Shown here piece after piece: positions 20,273 through 36,954 of a stretch of 64,000 nucleotides of DNA. Location of the stretch: NCBI GenBank assembly GCA_030018495.1, contig JASEFS010000001.1, positions 161,285 through 225,284 of the forward strand. Direction: 5' to 3'. Source of the stretch: Deltaproteobacteria bacterium. GTDB lineage: Bacteria; Desulfobacterota; Desulfobaccia; Desulfobaccales; 0-14-0-80-60-11. Below the pieces are notes generated by a model. The model was not told the origin of the DNA, did no database searches, and saw only the letters and a list, made by a program, of their open reading frames with translations. The translations under genes and the position numbers were made by a program. Each line of letters starts with the position of its first letter. Position 1 is the first letter of the stretch.

Positions 20273-21093
20273 GGCATTGTTTTGGAGGGCCGGGGATGCT
20301 TTTGCAGAAATTGCAGCACTGCGGCGTTGAACTCCTCGGGGCATTCGACATTGACGGCGTGTCCGGCCCCGGCAATTTCCACAAGTTCGGCTTGCGGCAG
20401 AAGGCTTGCCAATAGCCGGGCATTGGCCGGGGGCACGATGACGTCCGCGGTGCCGGTAATGACCAGGGTGGGCACCGCGAGGTCGGGCAACCGGCGGCAG
20501 CAGGAAAAGCCCTGGATGGCCGCCAGTTGGGCGTAAAACGCGAATTCCGGCTGAAAGGGAGCGCTCAACTGGACGCGGCGGTAGGCCTCAACGGCCTCGG
20601 GTTGGCCGGCCAGAAAGCCGGGGCTGAACATGAACGGCAGGTCCTTCTCGATGATTTGGGCCTGGGTGAGGCCCTGGATTTGAGAAATTCCCTCTAACAC
20701 CCCGGGAGCCGGAGGGGTGCGCTCCGGCGGACCGCAGTGAGTGCAGGCCAGCACCAGGGCGCGGACGCGCTCCGGGGCCGCCAGGGCCAAAGCCTGGGCG
20801 ATCATGCCGCCCATGGACATGCCCACCACCAGTGTTTGCTGGACGTCGAGATGATCCAGGAGGCAAAGGGCGTCCGCCGCGAATTGCTCCATGCGGTAGG
20901 GGCCCGGCGGCTGGTCCGAGCGGCCCGCGCCCCGGTTGTCGAAGACGATGGTGCGGTAGTGTTCCTGAAAAAAGGGAACCTGGGCATACCATGACCAGGT
21001 TCCGCCGTTTAAGCCGCTGATAAAGAGCAGGTCGGGGCCGCGGCCCTGAACCTGGTAATACAGCCGCACCTCCGGGCACTGACAGAAAGGCAT
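20269..21093 (-). CDS. Alpha/beta hydrolase fold protein
   Basis: LLFISGLNGG, GMSMGG nucleophile elbow, GAGHAVNVE. ATG 21093 preceded by AAAGGAG. Confidence 0.8.
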   Translation of the reverse strand: MPFCQCPEVRLYYQVQGRGPDLLFISGLNGGTWSWYAQVPFFQEHYRTIVFDNRGAGRSDQPPGPYRMEQFAADALCLLDHLDVQQTLVVGMSMGGMIAQALALAAPERVRALVLACTHCGPPERTPPAPGVLEGISQIQGLTQAQIIEKDLPFMFSPGFLAGQPEAVEAYRRVQLSAPFQPEFAFYAQLAAIQGFSCCRRLPDLAVPTLVITGTADVIVPPANARLLASLLPQAELVEIAGAGHAVNVECPEEFNAAVLQFLQKHPRPSKTMP

Positions 21094-21406
21094 GAAGGCT
21101 CCTTTCCAGTAATATTGAAATCGTCTCAAAAAGGTTTATTTATTATTCAATAAGATTTGCCAAACAATGTCGATTTTTTTGGATGTTCAAGCTCCTGAAA
21201 ATTCGAATTCTCCGACTGATGGGCCCGGAAACGAAAGGCTGACCGGTTGTTTTTTAACTTGCCGGCCCGGAGCATGATCTAACTAGGTGGGTGGGAACAT
21301 AAGCTTGCCTCGTCATCGGCGTCGCCGCGGGTGTTTTGGCCTCCAGCCGGGCGAGGACATAGGCGAACTTTCAAATAGTCTCATATAGATCGGAAAGGCA
21401 TTCTCT

Positions 21407-22222
21407 ATGCTGCGCTATCTAATCATATTTATCGGCATAACTTTGGGGGCCGCAGTCCTAATCCCCAATCGCACGGAGTCCTCGGCCCCCGCCCCGAAAC
21501 ATTCGGTGGCCGCGGGCAATTTGTTGGAAGAGCTGCGCTATCAGGTGGATGTCTGGGTATTCAAAGACGCGATTGACACCCAGGTGACGCTCAAGCGCCT
21601 GGACCAGCAGCGCTACCGGGCTCAAGTCAACGGCAAAGCCGTGGGCTTGCTGGGGGTGTTCAGCGGCCACTGGCAGGGGAGGTACGCCACGGAAATGATC
21701 CTGGTGGACGGCAAATTCATGCCGGTGGTCTACCGGGAGGAATCGCAACATGGCAGCAAGAAAAATCTCAAAGAATACCGCTTCGACTACGACAAAAAGG
21801 TGGTGGAGCTTTTCAAGTGGGACAACGGCAAACAGCAACTGACCAAACGGTGGCAGACCGCGCTCAGCGAGCCCATGTATGACCCCTTGAGCTTTTATTA
21901 CAACCAGCGCCTGCAAGGCATGTCTTTCGGGAAGCAGGGGGAAACCCTGAAATTTCAGGGCATCCCCTATCCCAAGCCGGAGGACATCGTCCTGCGGATC
22001 GGCCCGGATACCCCCCAGGGGCGCAAGATCATGGTCACCCTGGATAACCGCGTCTTTGAAAACGAACGCAACCATGTATACGCGTTGCTGGACAAGGACG
22101 GCGTGCCTGTGGAAGCCTGGACCGATGTGCTGCGGTTCGGCCGCATCACCGGCAAGCTGAAGCCCGGCAGCAAGCGCTTCAACGGCCGCTTGCTGGCCTC
22201 AGGGGGAATTAAAGAGGGATAA
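21407..22222 (+). CDS. Exported hypothetical protein (DUF3108-like suspected)
   Basis: N-terminal signal/anchor. Beta-rich sequence with alternating pattern. Family assignment tentative. Confidence 0.55.
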   Translation: MLRYLIIFIGITLGAAVLIPNRTESSAPAPKHSVAAGNLLEELRYQVDVWVFKDAIDTQVTLKRLDQQRYRAQVNGKAVGLLGVFSGHWQGRYATEMILVDGKFMPVVYREESQHGSKKNLKEYRFDYDKKVVELFKWDNGKQQLTKRWQTALSEPMYDPLSFYYNQRLQGMSFGKQGETLKFQGIPYPKPEDIVLRIGPDTPQGRKIMVTLDNRVFENERNHVYALLDKDGVPVEAWTDVLRFGRITGKLKPGSKRFNGRLLASGGIKEG

Positions 22223-22398
22223 AGGCGCCCGCCGGAAAAAATCAGGGCCACCCTCTTGCATAAGCGCCTTTTAATGATTATTTAATAATTAGCAGCCTGA
22301 GGACCGGAGAATCTGCTTCCGGCCCGCCTTAAGCACTGCGACTGGTAGGCGCGTGATGTGGGGGTGGCAGTCCCACCAGGCTGCCCTTAAAATGACCG

Positions 22399-22424
22399 GC
22401 CATGCTGTAAGCATGGCTTTTTTA
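22399..22424 (+). terminator. Rho-independent terminator of an unassigned short transcript
   Basis: gccatgc-tgtaa-gcatggc followed by TTTTTTATTT. Confidence 0.65.
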
Positions 22425-22568
22425 TTTGAGTGAGTGAATCCATCGGCGCGTATCAGGCGATTTGGGTTCGCCATCCTTTCCCCCGGGGATTTCTGAACCG
22501 ATTATTTTTTCTTGGCATTTCCGGAAAGATTATATAAATATAAAATAATATAAGGAAAAGCAGACTTG

Positions 22569-22733
22569 ATGTTGAAGCACTTCAGCCTCCATACTTGCAG
22601 CACCGATGAGCGTAGCATCAGCAGAAGCCGACGGGGCATGCCGGCGGCGCCTGATGTTGTGCAGCAGCCTGCATCTTCCTGCCTCCGGCTCGCCGGCAGC
22701 GAATTAGAGGTAGTAGTAGTCTGCCAGGGATGA
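22569..22733 (+). CDS. Candidate ilv leader peptide (54 aa from ATG 22569, or 31 aa from ATG 22638) ending ...LRLAGSELEVVVVCQG
   Basis: Below the ORF-track cutoff and read by hand. Four consecutive Val codons gta gta gta gtc at 22710-22721. TGA at 22731-22733 abuts the attenuator helices. Confidence 0.4.
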   Translation: MLKHFSLHTCSTDERSISRSRRGMPAAPDVVQQPASSCLRLAGSELEVVVVCQG

Positions 22734-22779
22734 CCCGCAGGCAAAGCCATATACGGGCGGCCTGCGGGCCGCCTTTTTT
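22734..22779 (+). terminator. Attenuator: mutually exclusive antiterminator (22734-22742 with 22760-22768) and terminator (22756-22762 with 22767-22773, plus T6)
   Basis: cccgcaggc pairs perfectly with gcctgcggg (9 bp). That segment overlaps both arms of the ggcggcc-tgcg-ggccgcc terminator. Confidence 0.6.
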
Positions 22780-22940
22780 AATGGCCTGGATTGCGGGCGG
22801 AAAGGAGGGCAAGGCGCGACTGTAACCCGGTGGAAAGTGGGATTTTTCCCCATCCAGGCAAGCAGTCTTCGCAGTTGACAAACAGGGGTTTTTTTTTAAA
22901 GATAGCTTTGCGGCTTGAAAAAAGATTTTAGAGGCAGGAT

Positions 22941-23174
22941 ATGGAAAAGCAAGATTTGGAATTGATTAACCGTTATATCGGCATAGACCCGGAACTCAAG
23001 CGCTACATGGATGAACATGCAGAGTTTGAGCGGCTCCTGGAAGAGTACAATCGGCGCCCTTATCTCACGGCCGAGGAAAGCCTGGAAAGGAAGCGCCTGC
23101 AAAAAATGAAACTGGCCGGCCGCGATAAGATCGAGCAAATTTTGGCCAAATACCGGAAGGAAGCGGTTGCATGA
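22941..23174 (+). CDS. DUF465 (YdcH-like) protein
   Basis: 77 aa coiled-coil, [39 protein letters not shown]. Stop overlaps the ilvB start (ATGA). Confidence 0.75.
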
Positions 23175-24874
23175 GCAAAAAGAGAACCGGCGCGCAAATT
23201 ATTCTGGACTGCCTGGAACGTGAAGGGGTGCGGCACATTTTCGGCTACCCCGGCGGGGCGGTTATTGACATTTATGACGAACTCACCCGGCGGCCCAATC
23301 TCAAGCACTACCTGGTGCGCCATGAACAGGCGGCGGTGCACGCCGCGGACGGTTATGCCAGGGCCTCGGACCAGGTGGGGGTCGCCCTGGTGACCTCGGG
23401 GCCGGGCGCCACCAACACGGTTACGGGCATCGCCAGCGCCTACATGGACTCCATTCCCATTGTGGTGTTCACGGGCCAGGTGCCCACCGCGCTCATCGGC
23501 AACGACGCGTTCCAGGAAGTGGATATCGTGGGCATCACCCGGCCCTGCACCAAACACAATTACCTGGTGACCGATATCAAAGACCTGGCCCGCACCATTC
23601 ATGAGGCGTTTTATATCGCCCGGACCGGGCGCCCGGGGCCTGTTCTGGTAGACCTGCCCAAAAACATCCAACAGAGCAGCATAGTGCCGGAGCCCATCGA
23701 TCTCAAGGCCATTAAGATCAAGAGTTATCAACCTACCTTGCATTGTAATCCCCGGCAGATAAAGCGGGCCTTGGACATGATTTTAGAGGCGAAAAAGCCG
23801 GTGCTTTATACCGGCGGCGGCATCATCGCGTCCAACGCCGCGGACGAGCTCTTTCAGTTCGCCGAAGCCCTGCAAATTCCGGTGACCAGCACCCTCATGG
23901 GCCTGGGGGGCTTTCCCGGGGTCCATCCCTTGTGGATGGGCATGCTGGGCATGCACGGCACCTACTGCGCCAACATGGCGGTGGCCAACTCCGACGTCCT
24001 CATCGCCATAGGAGCCCGCTTCGACGACCGGGTCACCGGCAAGCTGGCGGCTTTTGCCCCTTACGCCAAAATCATCCACATCGACGTGGACCCCAGCTCC
24101 ATCAGCAAGAACGTGGTGGTGCACATCCCCATTGTGGGCGACTGCCGTGATGCCCTGCATCAGCTCAACAGCCTGGTGAAAAAGCTGGAACCCCGGGATT
24201 GGCGGCAGGAGCGCCAGGAGTGGCTCGAGACCGTCAACGAATGGAACCGCAAACACCCCCTGGGTTACAAGCAGGACAAAAAGGTTATCAAGCCCCAATT
24301 CGTCATCGAAAAGCTGTGGGAGGCCACCAAGGGCGATGCATACATCACCACGGAGGTGGGCCAGAACCAGATGTGGGCCGCGCAATTCTACCGTTTCAAG
24401 CGGCCCCGGCAGCTCATGACTTCGGGGGGCCTGGGGGCTATGGGCTACGGCTTCCCTGCGGCCATGGGGGTGCAGGTGGCCAAGCCCGATGATGTTGTGA
24501 TCGATATTGCCGGCGACGGCAGCATCCTCATGAACATCCAGGAGCTCACCACGGTGGTGGAACACAACCTGCCGGTAAAAGTGGCCATTCTCAACAACAA
24601 CTATTTGGGTATGGTGCGCCAGTGGCAGCAGCTCCTTTATGACCGGCGCTACAGTCAGACGGACCTGACATCCCAGCCGGATTTCGTCAAGGTGGCCGAA
24701 GCCTTCGGCGCGGTGGGCCTGAGAGCTACCAAGCCCGACGAAGTGGAAAAGGTGATCCGGCAGGCCATGGAGACCGCCCGGCCGGTGTTCATGGATTTTG
24801 TGGTGGACCGGGAGGAGTGCGTCATGCCTATGGTGCCTCCGGGCAAAGCCACCCATGAAATGCTGTTGGCATAA
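23171..24874 (+). CDS. ilvB: Acetolactate synthase large subunit (biosynthetic type)
   Basis: [25 protein letters not shown]...; ThDP motif [14 protein letters not shown]...[14 protein letters not shown]. Confidence 0.95.
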
Positions 24875-24888
24875 GGAGGGGGAGAGCC

Positions 24889-25392
24889 ATGGAAGCATCG
24901 AAAAGCGTGCGCCGTCATACCATTTCCGTGTGGGTGGACAATACCCCGGGGGTTCTGTCCCGGGTCACCGGCCTGTTTTCCGGGCGGGGCTTTAATATTG
25001 AAAGCTTGTGCGTGGCCGAAACGATGGACCCCTCCGTCTCCCGCATCACCCTGGTGACCACGGGTGATGAATTCATCACCGAGCAGATTATCAAGCAGCT
25101 CCGCAAGCTCATCAATACCATCAAGGTGGTGGACCTGAGCGAACTGGGGCACGTAGAACGGGAGATGGCCCTGGTGACCGTGAAGGCCGAAGACAAGTCC
25201 AGGGCCGAAGTGCTGAGAATCGCCGACATCTTCCGCTGCCGGGTGGTGGACGTCAGTCCCAACACCTATACCCTGGAGATCACCGGCAACCATGAAAAAA
25301 TCCAAGCGGTCCTGGGCCTTTTGAAGAACCACGGCATTATGGACGAAGTGCGCAGCGGCGCGCTGGCCATCCAGCGGGCGAAAAAGGATTGA
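24889..25392 (+). CDS. ilvN: Acetolactate synthase small (regulatory) subunit
   Basis: ACT domain HTISVWVDNTPGVLSRVTGLFSGRGFNIESL. Confidence 0.9.
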   Translation: MEASKSVRRHTISVWVDNTPGVLSRVTGLFSGRGFNIESLCVAETMDPSVSRITLVTTGDEFITEQIIKQLRKLINTIKVVDLSELGHVEREMALVTVKAEDKSRAEVLRIADIFRCRVVDVSPNTYTLEITGNHEKIQAVLGLLKNHGIMDEVRSGALAIQRAKKD

Positions 25393-25448
25393 AGGAGTTA
25401 GGAAGCCTCAAGTCACTCACCTTCGGTCGGCATCCGAAAGGAGCAGGT

Positions 25449-25769
25449 ATGCAGGTTTTGATAGTTCTTTCCAGCCCTGACCCGGAAATTAAGTGGAACG
25501 CCGTCAGGTTCGGCAACTTCCTGCTTAACGAGGGCGACGACGTTACCATTTTTTTGAACGGCCCGGCGGTAGATCTTTTCGAGGGAGACAGCGAGCGGTT
25601 TCCCATAGCTGAACAGGCCAAACTCTTTACTCTGAGCGAAGGGGTGTTGGCGGGGTGAGGCAAGTGCATGGCCATCCACGGGGTGGATGCCGGTGAGCAG
25701 CTTAAGATGGGCAACATGAAGTTTCTCTCGGAACAGATGCGTCAGGCCGATAAAATTCTGAACTTTTGA
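25449..25769 (+). CDS. DsrE/DsrF-like family protein with in-frame UGA (putative selenocysteine at codon 70, UGKC motif)
   Basis: ATG 25449 after AAAGGAG. Frame reads through TGA 25656-25658 for 36 more sense codons to TGA 25767-25769. Product: MQVLIVLSS...GVLAG-U-GKCMAIHGVDAG...ADKILNF. Confidence 0.7.
25670..25691 (+). promoter_or_regulatory. SECIS-like hairpin downstream of the in-frame UGA
   Basis: gg(c)catccac-ggg-gtggatgcc starts 12 nt after the UGA. G-rich apical loop, one bulged C. Confidence 0.55.
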
Positions 25770-25850
25770 GCCGGGATGGGCAGACGGGTAAGGGAATTCC
25801 CACCTGTCCGGACCGAGTCCGATCATCAGCGAAAAGGAGAAAGCTGCCTT

Positions 25851-26846
25851 ATGGCGATAAAAATCTACTATGAAGCGGATGCGGATTTAGGAGTTCTGGC
25901 GGGGAAAAAGGTGGCCATTATCGGGTTCGGCTCTCAGGGCCATGCCCAGGCCCTGAATTTGCGGGACAGCGGCGTGGATGTCATTGTGGCCGAAATGCCC
26001 GGCACCCCTAACTATGAGGCCGCGCTGAAATATGGCTTCCAACCGGTGTCCGCCGCCGAAGCCGCGGCCCAAGCCGCGGTGGTGCAGATTCTGACCCAGG
26101 ACCACGTGCAGGCCATGCTTTATGAAAATGACTTGAAGCCGCACATGGGGCCGGGAAAGACCCTGCTCTTTTCCCACGGGTTCAACATCCATTTCGGCCA
26201 GATCATACCCGACCCCAAGGTGGACGTGGTCATGGTGGCACCCAAGGGGCCGGGGCATCTGGTGCGCAGCGAATACGAGAAAGGGGCCGGGGTCCCGTCG
26301 CTGGTGGCCATCCACCAGGAAGCGTCCGGCCAGGCCCTTAAGACCGCGCTGGCTTACGCCAAAGGCATCGGCGCCACCAGGGCCGGAGTGCTGGAGACCA
26401 CCTTCAAGGAAGAGACCGAAACCGACCTCTTCGGCGAGCAGTGCGTGCTGTGCGGCGGCGTGTCCGAACTGGTGAAGGCGGGCTACGAGACCCTGGTGGA
26501 GGCGGGCTACGCCCCGGAAATCGCCTATTTCGAGTGTTTGCACGAACTCAAGCTCATCGTGGACCTGTTCTACCAGGGCGGCATCAGCTATATGCGCTAT
26601 TCGGTGAGCGACACCGCGGAATACGGCGACTACACCCGGGGCAAACGCATCATCACCGAAGAGACCCGGGAGGAGATGCGCCAGATTCTCTATGAAGTGC
26701 AGACCGGGGAGTTCGCCCGGGAATGGATTCTGGAGAACAAGGCCAACCGGCCGGTGTTCAACGCCCTGCGCCGCATCGAGGCCGAGCACCCCATCGAGGA
26801 GGTGGGGAAAAAGCTGCGGTCTATGATGGGGTGGCTGAAGAAATAA
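25851..26846 (+). CDS. ilvC: Ketol-acid reductoisomerase
   Basis: ATG 25851 after [29 protein letters not shown]; class I length (about 331 aa). Confidence 0.95.
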
Positions 26847-28506: not shown

Positions 28507-29361
28507 GTGAAGCTATCGGTTGCTGATAACAACTCAAAAAAACTCGGCCCCTTTCTCTGTGATGCTATTGAGAAATCACAAGATGTGAGGATTGCTGTTG
28601 CCTTTATATCCAATAAAGGTATAAATTTTATTAGAAAATCGCTTGAATATGAACTTTTAAATTTAGGAACAATTGAATTTCTTATTGGATTGGATATTAA
28701 TTCAACAGAACCTAAAGCCATACAAAGCCTATTTGACCTTCAAAAGATTAGTGAAAGTTTAGAATTGTACTGTTATGCTTCACTAGAACCAGCTTCAATA
28801 TATCATCCTAAAATGTATCTTTGCAGAAATAATGATGATATTATCGCTATATTAGGTTCATCGAATTTGACAGAGGGAGGGTTAGTTAATAATATTGAAA
28901 TTAATATAATCATTGAATCAAATGAAAAAGAAGAAATAATTTCTGATATTTATGATACCTACAATAAATTGAAATTTCACCCAAAAAGAGTAATTCCTGA
29001 TCAGGAGTTTCTTGATATATACTTTGATTTGTGGTTAATAGAAAAGAAAAGCGCAAAGATTAAATCAAAGGATAGAAGTTATCAAGAATTAAAAACGAGT
29101 TTTCAAAAGAAGGTTGAGTCATTACAACGTCCTAAACCATCATTGAGAGATTTAGTTGGCTGGCCTAAAATAGTATATGAGCGTTTACCTGAAAAAGACT
29201 TTTCAAATGAACAGATATATAAATTTGAGAAAGAATTCCAAGACATGTATCCGGAAAACAAAAATATCCGGGCAAAAATCAGACAGCAGCTACAAGTACT
29301 CAGAGATATGGGGTTGATCAGGCATCTGGGCAGGTCACACTGGAAAAAAGTGGGATATTAA
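28507..29361 (+). CDS. PLD/HKD-family nuclease-like protein with C-terminal winged-helix-like tail, on an AT-rich islet
   Basis: Single HKD-type motif IYHPKMYLCRNNDDIIAILGSSNLTEGG. C-terminal NIRAKIRQQLQVLRDMGLIRHLGRSHWKK resembles Mrr-N/DpnI-type wH tails. Composition far more AT-rich than the flanks. Confidence 0.7.
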   Translation: MKLSVADNNSKKLGPFLCDAIEKSQDVRIAVAFISNKGINFIRKSLEYELLNLGTIEFLIGLDINSTEPKAIQSLFDLQKISESLELYCYASLEPASIYHPKMYLCRNNDDIIAILGSSNLTEGGLVNNIEINIIIESNEKEEIISDIYDTYNKLKFHPKRVIPDQEFLDIYFDLWLIEKKSAKIKSKDRSYQELKTSFQKKVESLQRPKPSLRDLVGWPKIVYERLPEKDFSNEQIYKFEKEFQDMYPENKNIRAKIRQQLQVLRDMGLIRHLGRSHWKKVGY

Positions 29362-29602
29362 GTATTGCTTTTTTAAAATATCCCTATAAAATCTTAAACA
29401 TTATGACTTCTGACAATTCGAAGGTTATCCAGGCATTAATCCTATCCTTGGCTCTCTTCTTAGCCTGCGCTTAGGCGCGAGGCACTTTCTTCCCATTCCC
29501 TAATCAGCAAAAAAGTGGTACATAATATAAGTTTCGGCCGTGGCCTGTTTGCGGCCTATGCTGTGAATTTACCGGTCATTGGCAATGGCCGAAAATTTTT
29601 CA

Positions 29603-29653: not shown

Positions 29654-31207
29654 ATGCCCGACAAAGTCGTAATTTTTGACACCACATTGAGAGACGGAGA
29701 GCAAACCCCCGGCGCGAGCCTGAACGTGGACGAAAAACTGCAGATCGCCCGGCAGTTGGAGCTCCTTAACGTGGATGTCATCGAGGCCGGGTTCCCCTTC
29801 TCCTCCAAAGGCGATTTCGAGGCCGTCAAGGCCGTGGCCCGGGAGATCAGGGGCACCCAGGTGGCGGCCTTGTGCCGGGCCAACTTCAAGGACATCGACG
29901 CGGCCTGGGAGGCCGTCAAGGAGGCCACCGCGCCCCGCATCCACACCTTTATCTCCACCTCGGACATTCACCTGAAATATCAGCTCAAGAAGACCCGGGA
30001 AGAGGTGTTGGAGCAGGCCGTGGCCGCGGTGTCGCACGCCGCCAAATACTGCGCCAACGTGGAGTTTTCGGCCATGGACGCGGGCAGAAGCGACCTGGAC
30101 TACGTGGTCAAGGTCTTCACCGCGGTCATCGACGCCGGGGCCACCACGGTGAATTTTCCGGACACTGTGGGCTACACCATCCCGCATGAGTTCGGCGCCA
30201 AAATCAAGTACTTGGTGGAGAATATCCCCAATATCCACAAGGCGGTGATTTCGGTGCACTGCCACAACGACCTGGGGCTGGCGGTGGCCAACACGCTGGC
30301 GGCCATCGTCAACGGCGCCCGCCAAGCCGAGTGCACCATCAACGGCATCGGCGAGCGGGCCGGCAACGCCTCCCTGGAGGAAATCGTCATGGCCCTGGCC
30401 ACCCGCAAGGACCTGTTCGATTATTACACGGAGATCGTAACCCAGTACATTTATCCAGCCAGCCGCCTGGTGAGCAAGCTCACCGGGGTGCTGGTCCAGC
30501 CCAATAAGGCCATCGTGGGGGCCAACGCGTTCGCGCACGAGTCCGGCATCCATCAGGACGGGGTGCTCAAGGAGGCCAGCACCTATGAGATCATGACCCC
30601 CACCGCGGTGGGCATCAAGAAGAGCTCCCTGCCGCTGGGCAAGCTCTCGGGCCGCCACGCGTTCCAAAAGAAGCTCCAGGAAATGGGCTTTTACCTCAAT
30701 GAAGACGAGCTCAACCGGGTGTTCGTGCGCTTCAAGGACCTGGCGGACCGCAAAAAGACGGTGTTCGACGAGGACCTGACCAGCTTGGTGGAAACCGAGG
30801 TCATTTACAAGTCGGTGCCCGAGCATTTCAAGCTGCTGGAGCTGGTGGTGCTGAGCGGCAACACGGTGAAGCCCTCGGCCAACGTGAAGATGGAGATAGG
30901 GGGCGTGGTGCAGGGGCCGTATTCCACCTTCGGGGACGGACCCATCGACGCCACCTACCGGGCCATCACCCACTTGGCCGAATCCAAGTGCACACTCCTG
31001 AAGTTCGCGGTGAGCTCCATCACCGGCGGCACCGACGCCCTGGGCGAAGTCTCCGTGCGCCTGGAAGAGGACGGCCACGTGGTCACCGGCCAGGGCGTGG
31101 ACCCGGACGTGGTCACGGCCAGCGCCCGGGCCTTTGTCAACGGCTTGAACCGCCTGCACTTTTTGAAGGAAGGCGGTCCCCGCAAAGGGAAGCCTGAAGA
31201 GTTGTAG
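29654..31207 (+). CDS. leuA: 2-isopropylmalate synthase
   Basis: [18 protein letters not shown]...[16 protein letters not shown]...; C-terminal LeuA regulatory domain. Confidence 0.95.
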
Positions 31208-36571: not shown

Positions 36572-36954
36572 AAATTGGCAGTTCAAGTTTTTAAGGCGGC
36601 CTACTCACGGGCCGCTTTTTCTTGAATTACTGGAAGAGGAACAGAGCATTCTTAATGATCATTCATTTTTTGAAAAATTAGAAAAACTTACCCTTAAAAT
36701 TCCTCCAAACTACCGACGAGCTAAAAAGTTTCATAGCAGACCTTGGCCGGGGGATTCCTCCTGATTGACACGGGTCGATGCCGGTCTTATTTTATAATAA
36801 GTTTGCAATCCCTTTAACAGGAGAAAAAACCCAACCGGAAGGCTTGTACGGCTTAACTGATTGCCATCTCAAGGGGCGGCCCGGGTCGCCTCTTTCTTTT
36901 TCTCAGATGGACCAACGGCAATTATGGAAGGCAGTCCGGTGGGAGCATATAGCA

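Follow-up and report, generated by a model that had tools for sequence, protein, structure and literature searches.

A probable valine-sensing leader-peptide attenuator upstream of the DUF465-ilvBNC genes in a Desulfobaccales genome

We analyzed a stretch of 64,000 nucleotides (nt), here called the window, from a Deltaproteobacteria bacterium of the order Desulfobaccales (NCBI GenBank assembly GCA_030018495.1, contig JASEFS010000001.1, positions 161,285 to 225,284 of the forward strand); all coordinates given without a locus name are positions within it. Our subject is a small unit at 22512-22779 on the + strand, upstream of the branched-chain amino acid genes ilvB, ilvN and ilvC, which, judging from its sequence, is probably a transcription attenuator of the ribosome-mediated (leader-peptide) kind, with valine and perhaps leucine as the amino acids sensed. 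The order of elements in the window is a promoter-like region (P1), the leader, the attenuator, a second promoter-like element (P2), and then DUF465-ilvBNC. A short reading frame ending in a run of valine codons, two mutually exclusive helices directly behind its stop codon, and the recurrence of this arrangement in related genomes carry the argument.

Sequence anatomy of the leader unit

The leader open reading frame (ORF) runs on the + strand, as do all parts of the unit, from an ATG at 22569 to a TGA at 22731-22733, and an internal ATG at 22638 could give an alternative product of 31 amino acids. The predicted 54-amino acid peptide, MLKHFSLHTCSTDERSISRSRRGMPAAPDVVQQPASSCLRLAGSELEVVVVCQG, begins with MLKHF, ends with SELEVVVVCQG directly before the stop, and has no match in Pfam. 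Four consecutive valine codons, GTA GTA GTA GTC, occupy 22710-22721 and are preceded by the rare leucine codon TTA (22704-22706); of the valine codons in 39 long ORFs from the window, 8.4% are GTA. Upstream of the ORF, a Shine-Dalgarno-like AAGGA (22552-22556) lies 9 nt 5' of a TTG at 22566 and 12 nt 5' of the ATG at 22569. The promoter-like region P1 (22512-22545) offers TTGGCA as a -35 hexamer (22512-22517) and, as a -10 hexamer, either TATAAA (22533-22538, 15-nt spacer) or TAAATA (22535-22540, 17-nt spacer).

The antiterminator 5' strand, CCCGCAGGC (22734-22742; consensus CCYGCRGGS), begins immediately after the stop codon and is the perfect 9-base-pair complement of GCCTGCGGG at 22760-22768. 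The latter segment is at the same time the inner 5' arm, the loop and the inner 3' arm of an intrinsic terminator, GGCGGCC-TGCG-GGCCGCC with T6 (22756-22779; stem-loop 22756-22773, T-run 22774-22779). The two helices are near-isoenergetic, at -18.7 and -18.5 kcal/mol, and among the 9 terminator-like hairpins of the window only this one has a perfect upstream complement of more than 6 nt (9 nt). The reading frame with both of its starts, the valine codons, and the complement overlapping the terminator had all been described in the initial annotation of this DNA, and all were confirmed in the sequence, with the hairpin also called by the terminator scan (8 pairs, 7 of them G-C). An Rfam scan of 21000-24000 found no leader or cis-regulatory family reaching its gathering score at the unit; the sub-threshold matches over 22709-22904, namely TarB (23.4 bits against a gathering score of 80), MicX, and BASRCII26, were all driven by the terminator.

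Conservation of the unit among relatives

Relatives were sampled with an ilvB search and with a metagenome scan using a DUF465 alignment, which contributed 80 more loci, and all loci (numbered with the prefix L) were retrieved via ilvB or DUF465. The IlvB of the window is 85% identical to that of L001 and 75% identical to that of L002, both from Desulfobaccales metagenome-assembled genomes. Three states were found upstream of DUF465: a class A unit, a class B unit, or no unit. Class A comprises 13 sequences, the window and 12 other loci, each with its own promoter, a small ORF, the antiterminator/terminator pair, and a T-run, the terminator having the form GGCGGCC-YGCR-GGCCGCY with T6-7. Class B comprises about 20 loci, L002 among them, with the terminator GGCAGGGCCGC-nnn-GCGGCCCTGYY and T6-9. 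In loci with no unit (e.g., L081, L082, L086, L087, L132, and L142), the terminator of a skipping-rope RNA is followed directly by the DUF465 promoter. Wherever the unit was retrieved, it lies on the same strand as DUF465-ilvB and directly upstream of it.

Only the last ~100 nt of the class A units can be aligned, and the predicted peptides range from 25 to 71 amino acids with completely different, unalignable N-terminal sequences. Within the alignable part, a V-x-V-V block (GTA-GGT-GTA-GTA) is present in 13 of 13 class A loci. Over the last 12 codons of these leaders, valine accounts for 44 of 156 residues (28%), and 33 of the 44 valine codons (75%) are GTA. The last valine codon stands 9-18 nt 5' of the stop, and the distance from the valine block to the antiterminator strand is 18, 21, or 24 nt, in every case a multiple of three. 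The reading frame is kept in 12 of the 13 loci, and in 11 of the 13 the in-frame stop is a TGA that abuts the antiterminator strand exactly; the stop of L083 comes 8 nt earlier and is still in frame, and that of L001 is taken up below. A leader peptide with a regulatory role is indicated by four traits in combination: the frame is kept, the stop keeps its position, insertions and deletions come only in multiples of three, and the cognate codons are rare ones in a peptide that is otherwise free to change. This pattern does not fit a protein or a plain small RNA (sRNA).

In relatives that carry the unit, the P1 elements consist of TTGACT or TTGACA, a 16-19 nt spacer, and a TATAAT-like hexamer, located 175-292 nt upstream of the end of the T-run; the -35 hexamer of the window lies at -267 on the same scale, and its P1 is weaker than the good P1 elements of other carriers. 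Leader starts in relatives are either preceded by a Shine-Dalgarno sequence (GGAG, GAGG, or AGGAG) or of leaderless type, right after the -10 hexamer. No antisense ORF at the leader unit is conserved.

Pairing of the two helices

In the alignment of the 13 class A loci, 96.6% of cells keep the antiterminator pairing, compared with at most 56% when the strands are slid to other registers, and its variable positions run UG/CG/UA and GC/GU/AU. The terminator is paired in 99% of cells. In class B, for which 15 distinct sequences were aligned, an upstream strand of unrelated sequence, GGCCUGCCUG, stands just after a V/L-rich block (e.g., ...LILVAGVAVGAAACL...) and pairs with CAGGCAGGGCC in 95.3% of cells. 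Duplexes formed by class A strands averaged -17.7 kcal/mol on terminators of their own class versus -11.2 kcal/mol on class B terminators, and those formed by class B strands averaged -18.4 kcal/mol on their own versus -15.9 kcal/mol on class A terminators. At the level of sequence, class B is an independent replicate, in which a different terminator goes with a correspondingly different upstream strand, and it adds support to the predicted antiterminator helix.

The initial annotation had called the attenuator classical in style. The valine leader, the stop-abutting antiterminator strand, and the exclusive terminator are indeed kept in the 13 class A loci, but a region-1 or protector helix is not among the conserved structures: RNAalifold recovers the terminator only, and in a duplex search the best upstream partners of the antiterminator strand vary in position, with most of them no better than shuffles. 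The segment GCCTGC at 22667-22672, which had been put forward as a region-1 partner, pairs only in the minimum-energy fold of the window itself, is not conserved, and was dropped. A covariance model of class A, run over the window, recovered the unit itself (71.9 bits) and no paralogous copy. Its match at 36577-36622, considered as a second copy, was rejected as an ordinary terminator after an ORF; a similar GGCGGCC...GGCCGC stem at 36590-36615 is a plain terminator.

In silico test of the switch

The two helices were compared by partition-function folding in which a ribosome masks part of the transcript. The footprint was an assumed one, reaching from ~15 nt 5' of the A-site codon to ~12 nt 3' of it. 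Placing the ribosome at the leader stop codon of the window gave a P(terminator) of 0.97 and a P(antiterminator) of 0, and with the ribosome on the last valine codon the values were 0.01 and 0.99, respectively. Masked folding of the window thus reproduces the behavior that the initial annotation had predicted, with a stop-positioned ribosome favoring termination and a valine-stalled ribosome favoring read-through. With no ribosome present, P(terminator) was 0.19 and P(antiterminator) was 0.80, and by this model a leader that is left untranslated should give read-through by default.

Full-length equilibrium folding was set aside as a sole test, the analysis of transcripts ending before the outer 3' arm of the terminator being the more relevant one. 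For these shorter transcripts, the mean P(antiterminator) over the 13 loci was 0.65 with the ribosome on valine and 0 with the ribosome at the stop, and with the ribosome on valine it was at least 0.85 in 8 of the 13 class A sequences. These outcomes point to a two-helix attenuator design, with the antiterminator blocked by the terminating ribosome itself.

Proposed mechanism

In the mechanism that we propose, transcription would start from P1 and the 54-codon leader would be translated close behind the polymerase. When charged valine transfer RNA (Val-tRNA) is plentiful, the ribosome would reach the TGA at 22731 and cover the next ~10 nt, that is, the entire antiterminator strand (22734-22742); with that strand covered, the terminator hairpin (22756-22773 and U6) would form and a transcript of ~230 nt would end there. 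When charged Val-tRNA is scarce, the rare valine codons (GTA/GTC, 22710-22721), which lie 12-21 nt before the stop, would stall the ribosome; the antiterminator strand, left free, would pair with 22760-22768 at a time when the terminator's outer 3' arm has yet to emerge. The polymerase would then pass P2 into DUF465-ilvB-ilvN-ilvC. In such a design the ribosome at the stop codon would be the sole "anti-antiterminator," there being no region-1 helix. The analysis shows the anatomy of the unit, its conservation, and the switch in folding, and from these infers that P1 and P2 are used, that the ORF is translated, that ribosomes stall, and what the regulatory outcome is.

The probable downstream promoter and the presumed target genes

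P2, the proximal promoter-like element of DUF465-ilvBNC, lies downstream of the attenuator terminator at 22875-22903 on the + strand and consists of TTGACA, a 17-nt spacer, and AAAGAT. In essentially every Desulfobaccales-type locus, TTGACAA followed after ~17 nt by TAAGAT, TAGCAT, or TAATAT is found ~70 nt 5' of the DUF465 ATG, and P2 also occurs in distant DUF465-ilvB loci (e.g., L004, L005, L009, L043, and L045) from orders that never had the leader unit. From this sequence evidence, the ilv operon very probably has its own promoter in P2. The attenuator is accordingly not located in the 5' leader of the operon's sole promoter, since P2 stands between the terminator and DUF465, and the conservation of P2 implies that the attenuator can only add read-through from P1, as a starvation-responsive supplement and not as the sole gate. 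The TTGACA at 22875 had been named in the initial annotation as a promoter that might refute attenuation; it belongs to the conserved P2, and the attenuator would then supplement ilv transcription instead of gating it. The P2 element is unusually well conserved across orders. Many DUF465 loci also carry, after P2, a conserved motif in the 5' untranslated region (GTTGTAACTTTGAGAAA) that could be an operator or an RNA element; the window lacks this motif.

In some relatives, the interval between the terminator and P2 has received additional DNA. Inserts of G/C-rich inverted repeats (CCCCCTCCCC ... GGGGAGGGGG), resembling miniature inverted-repeat transposable elements (MITEs) or repetitive extragenic palindromic (REP) sequences, are located upstream of DUF465 in L085 (2098-2500), L136 (498-870), L090, and L092, between the upstream terminators and the ilv promoter. 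L145 holds an ORF-less group II intron at 1758-2430 (RF02001, 99.6 bits; Rfam matches 1844-2132), which is directly 3' of the class A terminator T-run and in the same orientation. Class C group II introns are known to insert after intrinsic terminators, and the placement of the L145 intron after the T-run indirectly marks the hairpin as a terminator motif.

The presumed regulated genes extend from 22941 to 26846 on the + strand and were assigned with Pfam as DUF465 (22941-23174), ilvB (23171-24874), ilvN (24889-25392), and ilvC (25776-26846). This agrees with the initial annotation apart from a gene between ilvN and ilvC that had been labeled dsrE-like, an ORF of 89 amino acids with no Pfam match. 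The terminator scan found no terminator-like site on the + strand within 22780-23171. The stop of DUF465 and the start of ilvB overlap (ATGA, 23171-23174), and the adjacency of the two genes is kept in several orders; because of this overlap, the sequence suggests translational coupling of DUF465, a protein family of unassigned function, to acetohydroxy-acid synthase (AHAS). On the further flanks, Pfam identified DUF3108 upstream and psd and pssA downstream.

Inheritance and loss

In a neighbor-joining tree of IlvB, each class has its own clade, that of class A including the window, and the loci that have no unit are nested within these groups or form a separate clade. This clustering indicates vertical inheritance with occasional loss and not a mobile element. 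Several lineages nested among carriers have lost the unit, which on this evidence is dispensable. The identity of DUF465 (93% to L081) had suggested that the unit is missing from the closest relatives of the window; this suggestion was overruled by the ilvB tree, in which the window lies inside the class A clade and L081/L082 make up a separate unit-less clade. Loss of the unit by recombination between P1 and P2 was also considered, and the alignment is too weak to say.

Weighing of alternative explanations

Several observations weigh against reading the unit as an attenuator of the ilv genes. The TTGGCA...TATAAA pair pointed out in the initial annotation is present at 22512-22538, but the consensus promoter scan does not call it and its hexamers are poor. 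A leader peptide of 54 amino acids is long for an attenuator, and L001 has AGA where its near-twin L102 has TGA and is left with no in-frame stop. Of the comparison with relatives that the initial annotation had proposed, the conservation of the valine block, the ORF stop, and the helices was borne out, but the covariation in the antiterminator proved weak, with a single double-sided pair and with 59 of 500 shuffles reaching the observed score. A clean switch at full-length equilibrium was obtained in only 4 of the 13 class A sequences. P2 is present with or without the leader unit, and its retention in unit-less loci suggests that ilv can be expressed with no need for read-through. Furthermore, some carriers have 370-740 nt of repeat-rich DNA or a group II intron between terminator and P2, and the unit is gone from several lineages (L142, L087, L089, L092, and the L081/L082 clade).

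The inserts and P2 keep two rival explanations alive, neither of which explains the geometry of stop and antiterminator or the replication of the design in class B. The unit might be an independent small gene, a stand-alone stretch of ~230 nt from P1 to the terminator that produces a trans-acting sRNA or a small, partly hydrophobic peptide, with ilv transcribed from P2 only. Such a gene, which we consider unlikely, would suit the unit's own promoter, strong terminator, and constant length of ~210-290 nt, the conservation of P2 and its presence in loci with no unit, the variable and sometimes large spacers between terminator and P2, and the dispensability of the unit in several lineages; class B peptides (e.g., ...VLILVAGVAVGAAACLAGSAPVGLRR...) resemble a short transmembrane segment, and rnTrpL of Sinorhizobium is a precedent for an sRNA derived from an attenuator (PMC7968998). 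It leaves unexplained, however, that the stop abuts a strand complementary to the terminator apex, that two classes with different terminators have matching upstream strands, and that conservation is confined to the rare-codon valine block, with the remaining peptide free to drift in sequence and length. Class A peptides have no hydrophobic stretch of transmembrane length, no copy of the unit is found elsewhere in the window, and among the loci retrieved the unit is always upstream of DUF465-ilvB. A small hydrophobic protein or toxin was likewise considered and rejected, as it fits the class B peptides superficially and the class A peptides not at all. Alternatively, the unit might be a decaying relic: an ancestral ilv attenuator, cut off from the ilv genes when P2 was acquired and DNA was inserted, that survives by inertia and is on its way to loss. 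The losses in several lineages, the insertions between terminator and P2, the missing stop of L001, and the degenerate -35 hexamer of the window (TTGGCA) would all be in keeping with decay. But lineages whose IlvB proteins are only ~65-85% identical still share the valine block, the stop position, and both helices, a retention that implies purifying selection, and P2 occurs in distant orders that never had the unit, making P2 the older and not the newer element; we hold a relic to be highly improbable.

That the hairpin is an ordinary terminator or insulator, which ends transcription from P1 or read-through from the skipping-rope RNA and so shields the ilv promoter, with the 9-nt complement and the valine codons incidental to the near-palindrome GCCYGCRGGC, also seems very unlikely. 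The apex is a near-palindrome, so a nearby copy of it reads as both a direct and an inverted repeat, the statistical covariation is weak, and the similar stem at 36590-36615 is indeed a plain terminator. An incidental repeat would nevertheless not be expected to keep its upstream strand, hold a fixed place after an in-frame TGA, and tolerate indels only in multiples of three; just 1 of the 9 terminator-like hairpins in the window has such a complement, and class B repeats the same logic with unrelated sequences. A different possibility, which goes beyond attenuation and which we regard as improbable, is that the unit is a self-contained, heritable, and dispensable plug-in, composed of a promoter and a two-helix valine sensor for which the terminating ribosome alone serves as anti-antiterminator, with a dual output that combines read-through across P2 with an abundant ~230-nt RNA or its peptide acting in trans. 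Valine-dependent read-through could then occlude or boost a constitutive P2, and the terminated RNA or peptide would act in trans like rnTrpL/peTrpL of Sinorhizobium. If true, this would explain why the unit persists despite inserts of 370-740 nt before P2; a trans function of the terminated transcript is, however, pure speculation by analogy.

Comparison with known attenuators

Read as a leader-peptide attenuator, the unit would have its closest characterized analogue in the Val/Leu attenuator ivbL-ilvBN of Escherichia coli. Both precede genes for the large and small subunits of AHAS, and ivbL likewise combines runs of valine (and leucine) codons with exclusive antiterminator and terminator structures in which a ribosome at the end of the leader favors termination. 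The E. coli system differs in having a leader of 32 amino acids, a protector (1:2) helix, and an attenuator placed in the 5' untranslated region of the operon's only promoter, whereas the unit of the window has a leader of 54 amino acids (25-71 in relatives), no conserved protector helix, and a second promoter before the genes. The two share no sequence or Rfam relationship.

The ilvBNC operon of Corynebacterium glutamicum (PMC11857589, PMC10272879) is of the same type, with a leader peptide of branched-chain codons followed by a terminator; it differs in its actinobacterial three-hairpin model and its short leader and is unrelated in sequence. In Sinorhizobium meliloti, termination at the leader-peptide attenuator trpL yields a separate small RNA, rnTrpL (PMC7968998, PMC7298713), which is a precedent for a possible trans role of the ~230-nt terminated transcript of the window; trpL differs in its tryptophan codons, its 14-amino acid peptide, and its alphaproteobacterial host.

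Attenuators of a more direct kind were found among the relatives themselves. At least 10 of 74 ilvB-related loci, mostly labeled delta-proteobacterial or Desulfobacterota, carry a textbook leader with isoleucine, leucine, and valine codons and a terminator directly upstream of ilvB, in the 20-300 nt before the gene (L025, L032, L042, L044, L065, L067, L070, L078, L055, and L079). Examples of the predicted leaders are MIHQNFMGSIVVGVVVVIKGDRCSGSLMV in L055 (MIHQNFMGSIVVGVVVVIKG...) and MHKIIAIYNLISLILVLAGVLIICGEHPGLIMA in L065 (...NLISLILVLAGVLIIC...), each ending at a stop codon. The antiterminator strand overlaps the end of the ORF (e.g., GGGTTGATAATGG versus CCGTTATCAGCCC) and is followed by a strong terminator with T7-T9; one type pairs GGGTTGATAATGG against the terminator CCGTTATCAGC..GCTGATAACGG with T8, and another, seen in L055 and L079, has VVGVVVV. 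These direct attenuators sit 20-230 nt 5' of ilvB and have a single TTGACAA-type promoter upstream of the leader, no DUF465, and mixed Ile/Leu/Val codons, whereas in the type found in the window valine dominates, DUF465-ilvB lies downstream, and a second promoter comes after the leader unit. Neither type is covered by an Rfam family. The direct ilvB attenuators in related genomes indicate that the attenuation strategy is in use in related bacteria.

Other elements in the window

A skipping-rope RNA (RF02924, 37.6 bits against a gathering score of 36.7) is located upstream of the leader unit at 22292-22384 on the + strand and has its own terminator, the element extending to 22424. Skipping-rope RNAs were also found in L001 (114-209), L002 (465-557), and L112 (1585-1683). 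Weinberg et al. (2017, PMC5737381) note an association of the motif with a protein family in its neighborhood. In the window the RNA comes after the DUF3108 gene (21407-22222), and the order DUF3108, skipping-rope RNA, leader unit where present, and DUF465-ilvB recurs in many related loci. Every leader unit retrieved has a skipping-rope RNA on one side and DUF465-ilvBNC on the other.

Further downstream, in the region 29404-29600 on the + strand, a small ORF encoding MTSDNSKVIQALILSLALFLACA up to its stop codon lies upstream of leuA (29654-31207) and contains 6 leucine codons, the rare TTA and CTA among them. After it come GCCTGCGC-TTAG-GCGCGAGGC, a hairpin at 29573-29591, and then AAAATTTTT; going by its sequence, this ORF may be a candidate leucine leader for leuA. 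Between pssA and leuA, an ORF at 28507-29361 (+ strand) encodes a PLD-family/DpnI-like restriction endonuclease (Pfam PLDc_2, RE_NgoFVII, and DpnI_C), surrounded by an otherwise biosynthetic row of genes.

Implications

In the literature library searched, no described ilv leader from delta-proteobacteria or Desulfobacterota was found, although a 2010 survey outside that library (Lopatovskaya et al., Mol Biol 44:128) may list some. The present element leaves the understanding of attenuation as such unchanged; its variant features are that it lacks a protector helix and that a second promoter lies in tandem downstream. The Desulfobaccales are sulfate-reducing or syntrophic Thermodesulfobacteriota known mostly from metagenomes, and the unit would extend leader-peptide attenuation of branched-chain amino acid synthesis to them, as a defined family of ~30 loci in two structural classes with a testable anatomy. 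A small, presumably translated ORF with a premature terminator in this position is likely to be missed by gene callers and operon predictors. Taken together, the analysis suggests a minimal two-helix design, in which a ribosome paused at the stop codon would replace the protector helix and which would sit in tandem with a constitutive promoter. Such a unit would be a natural example of a starvation booster of the "add-on" kind, whose gain or loss in a lineage leaves the operon working.

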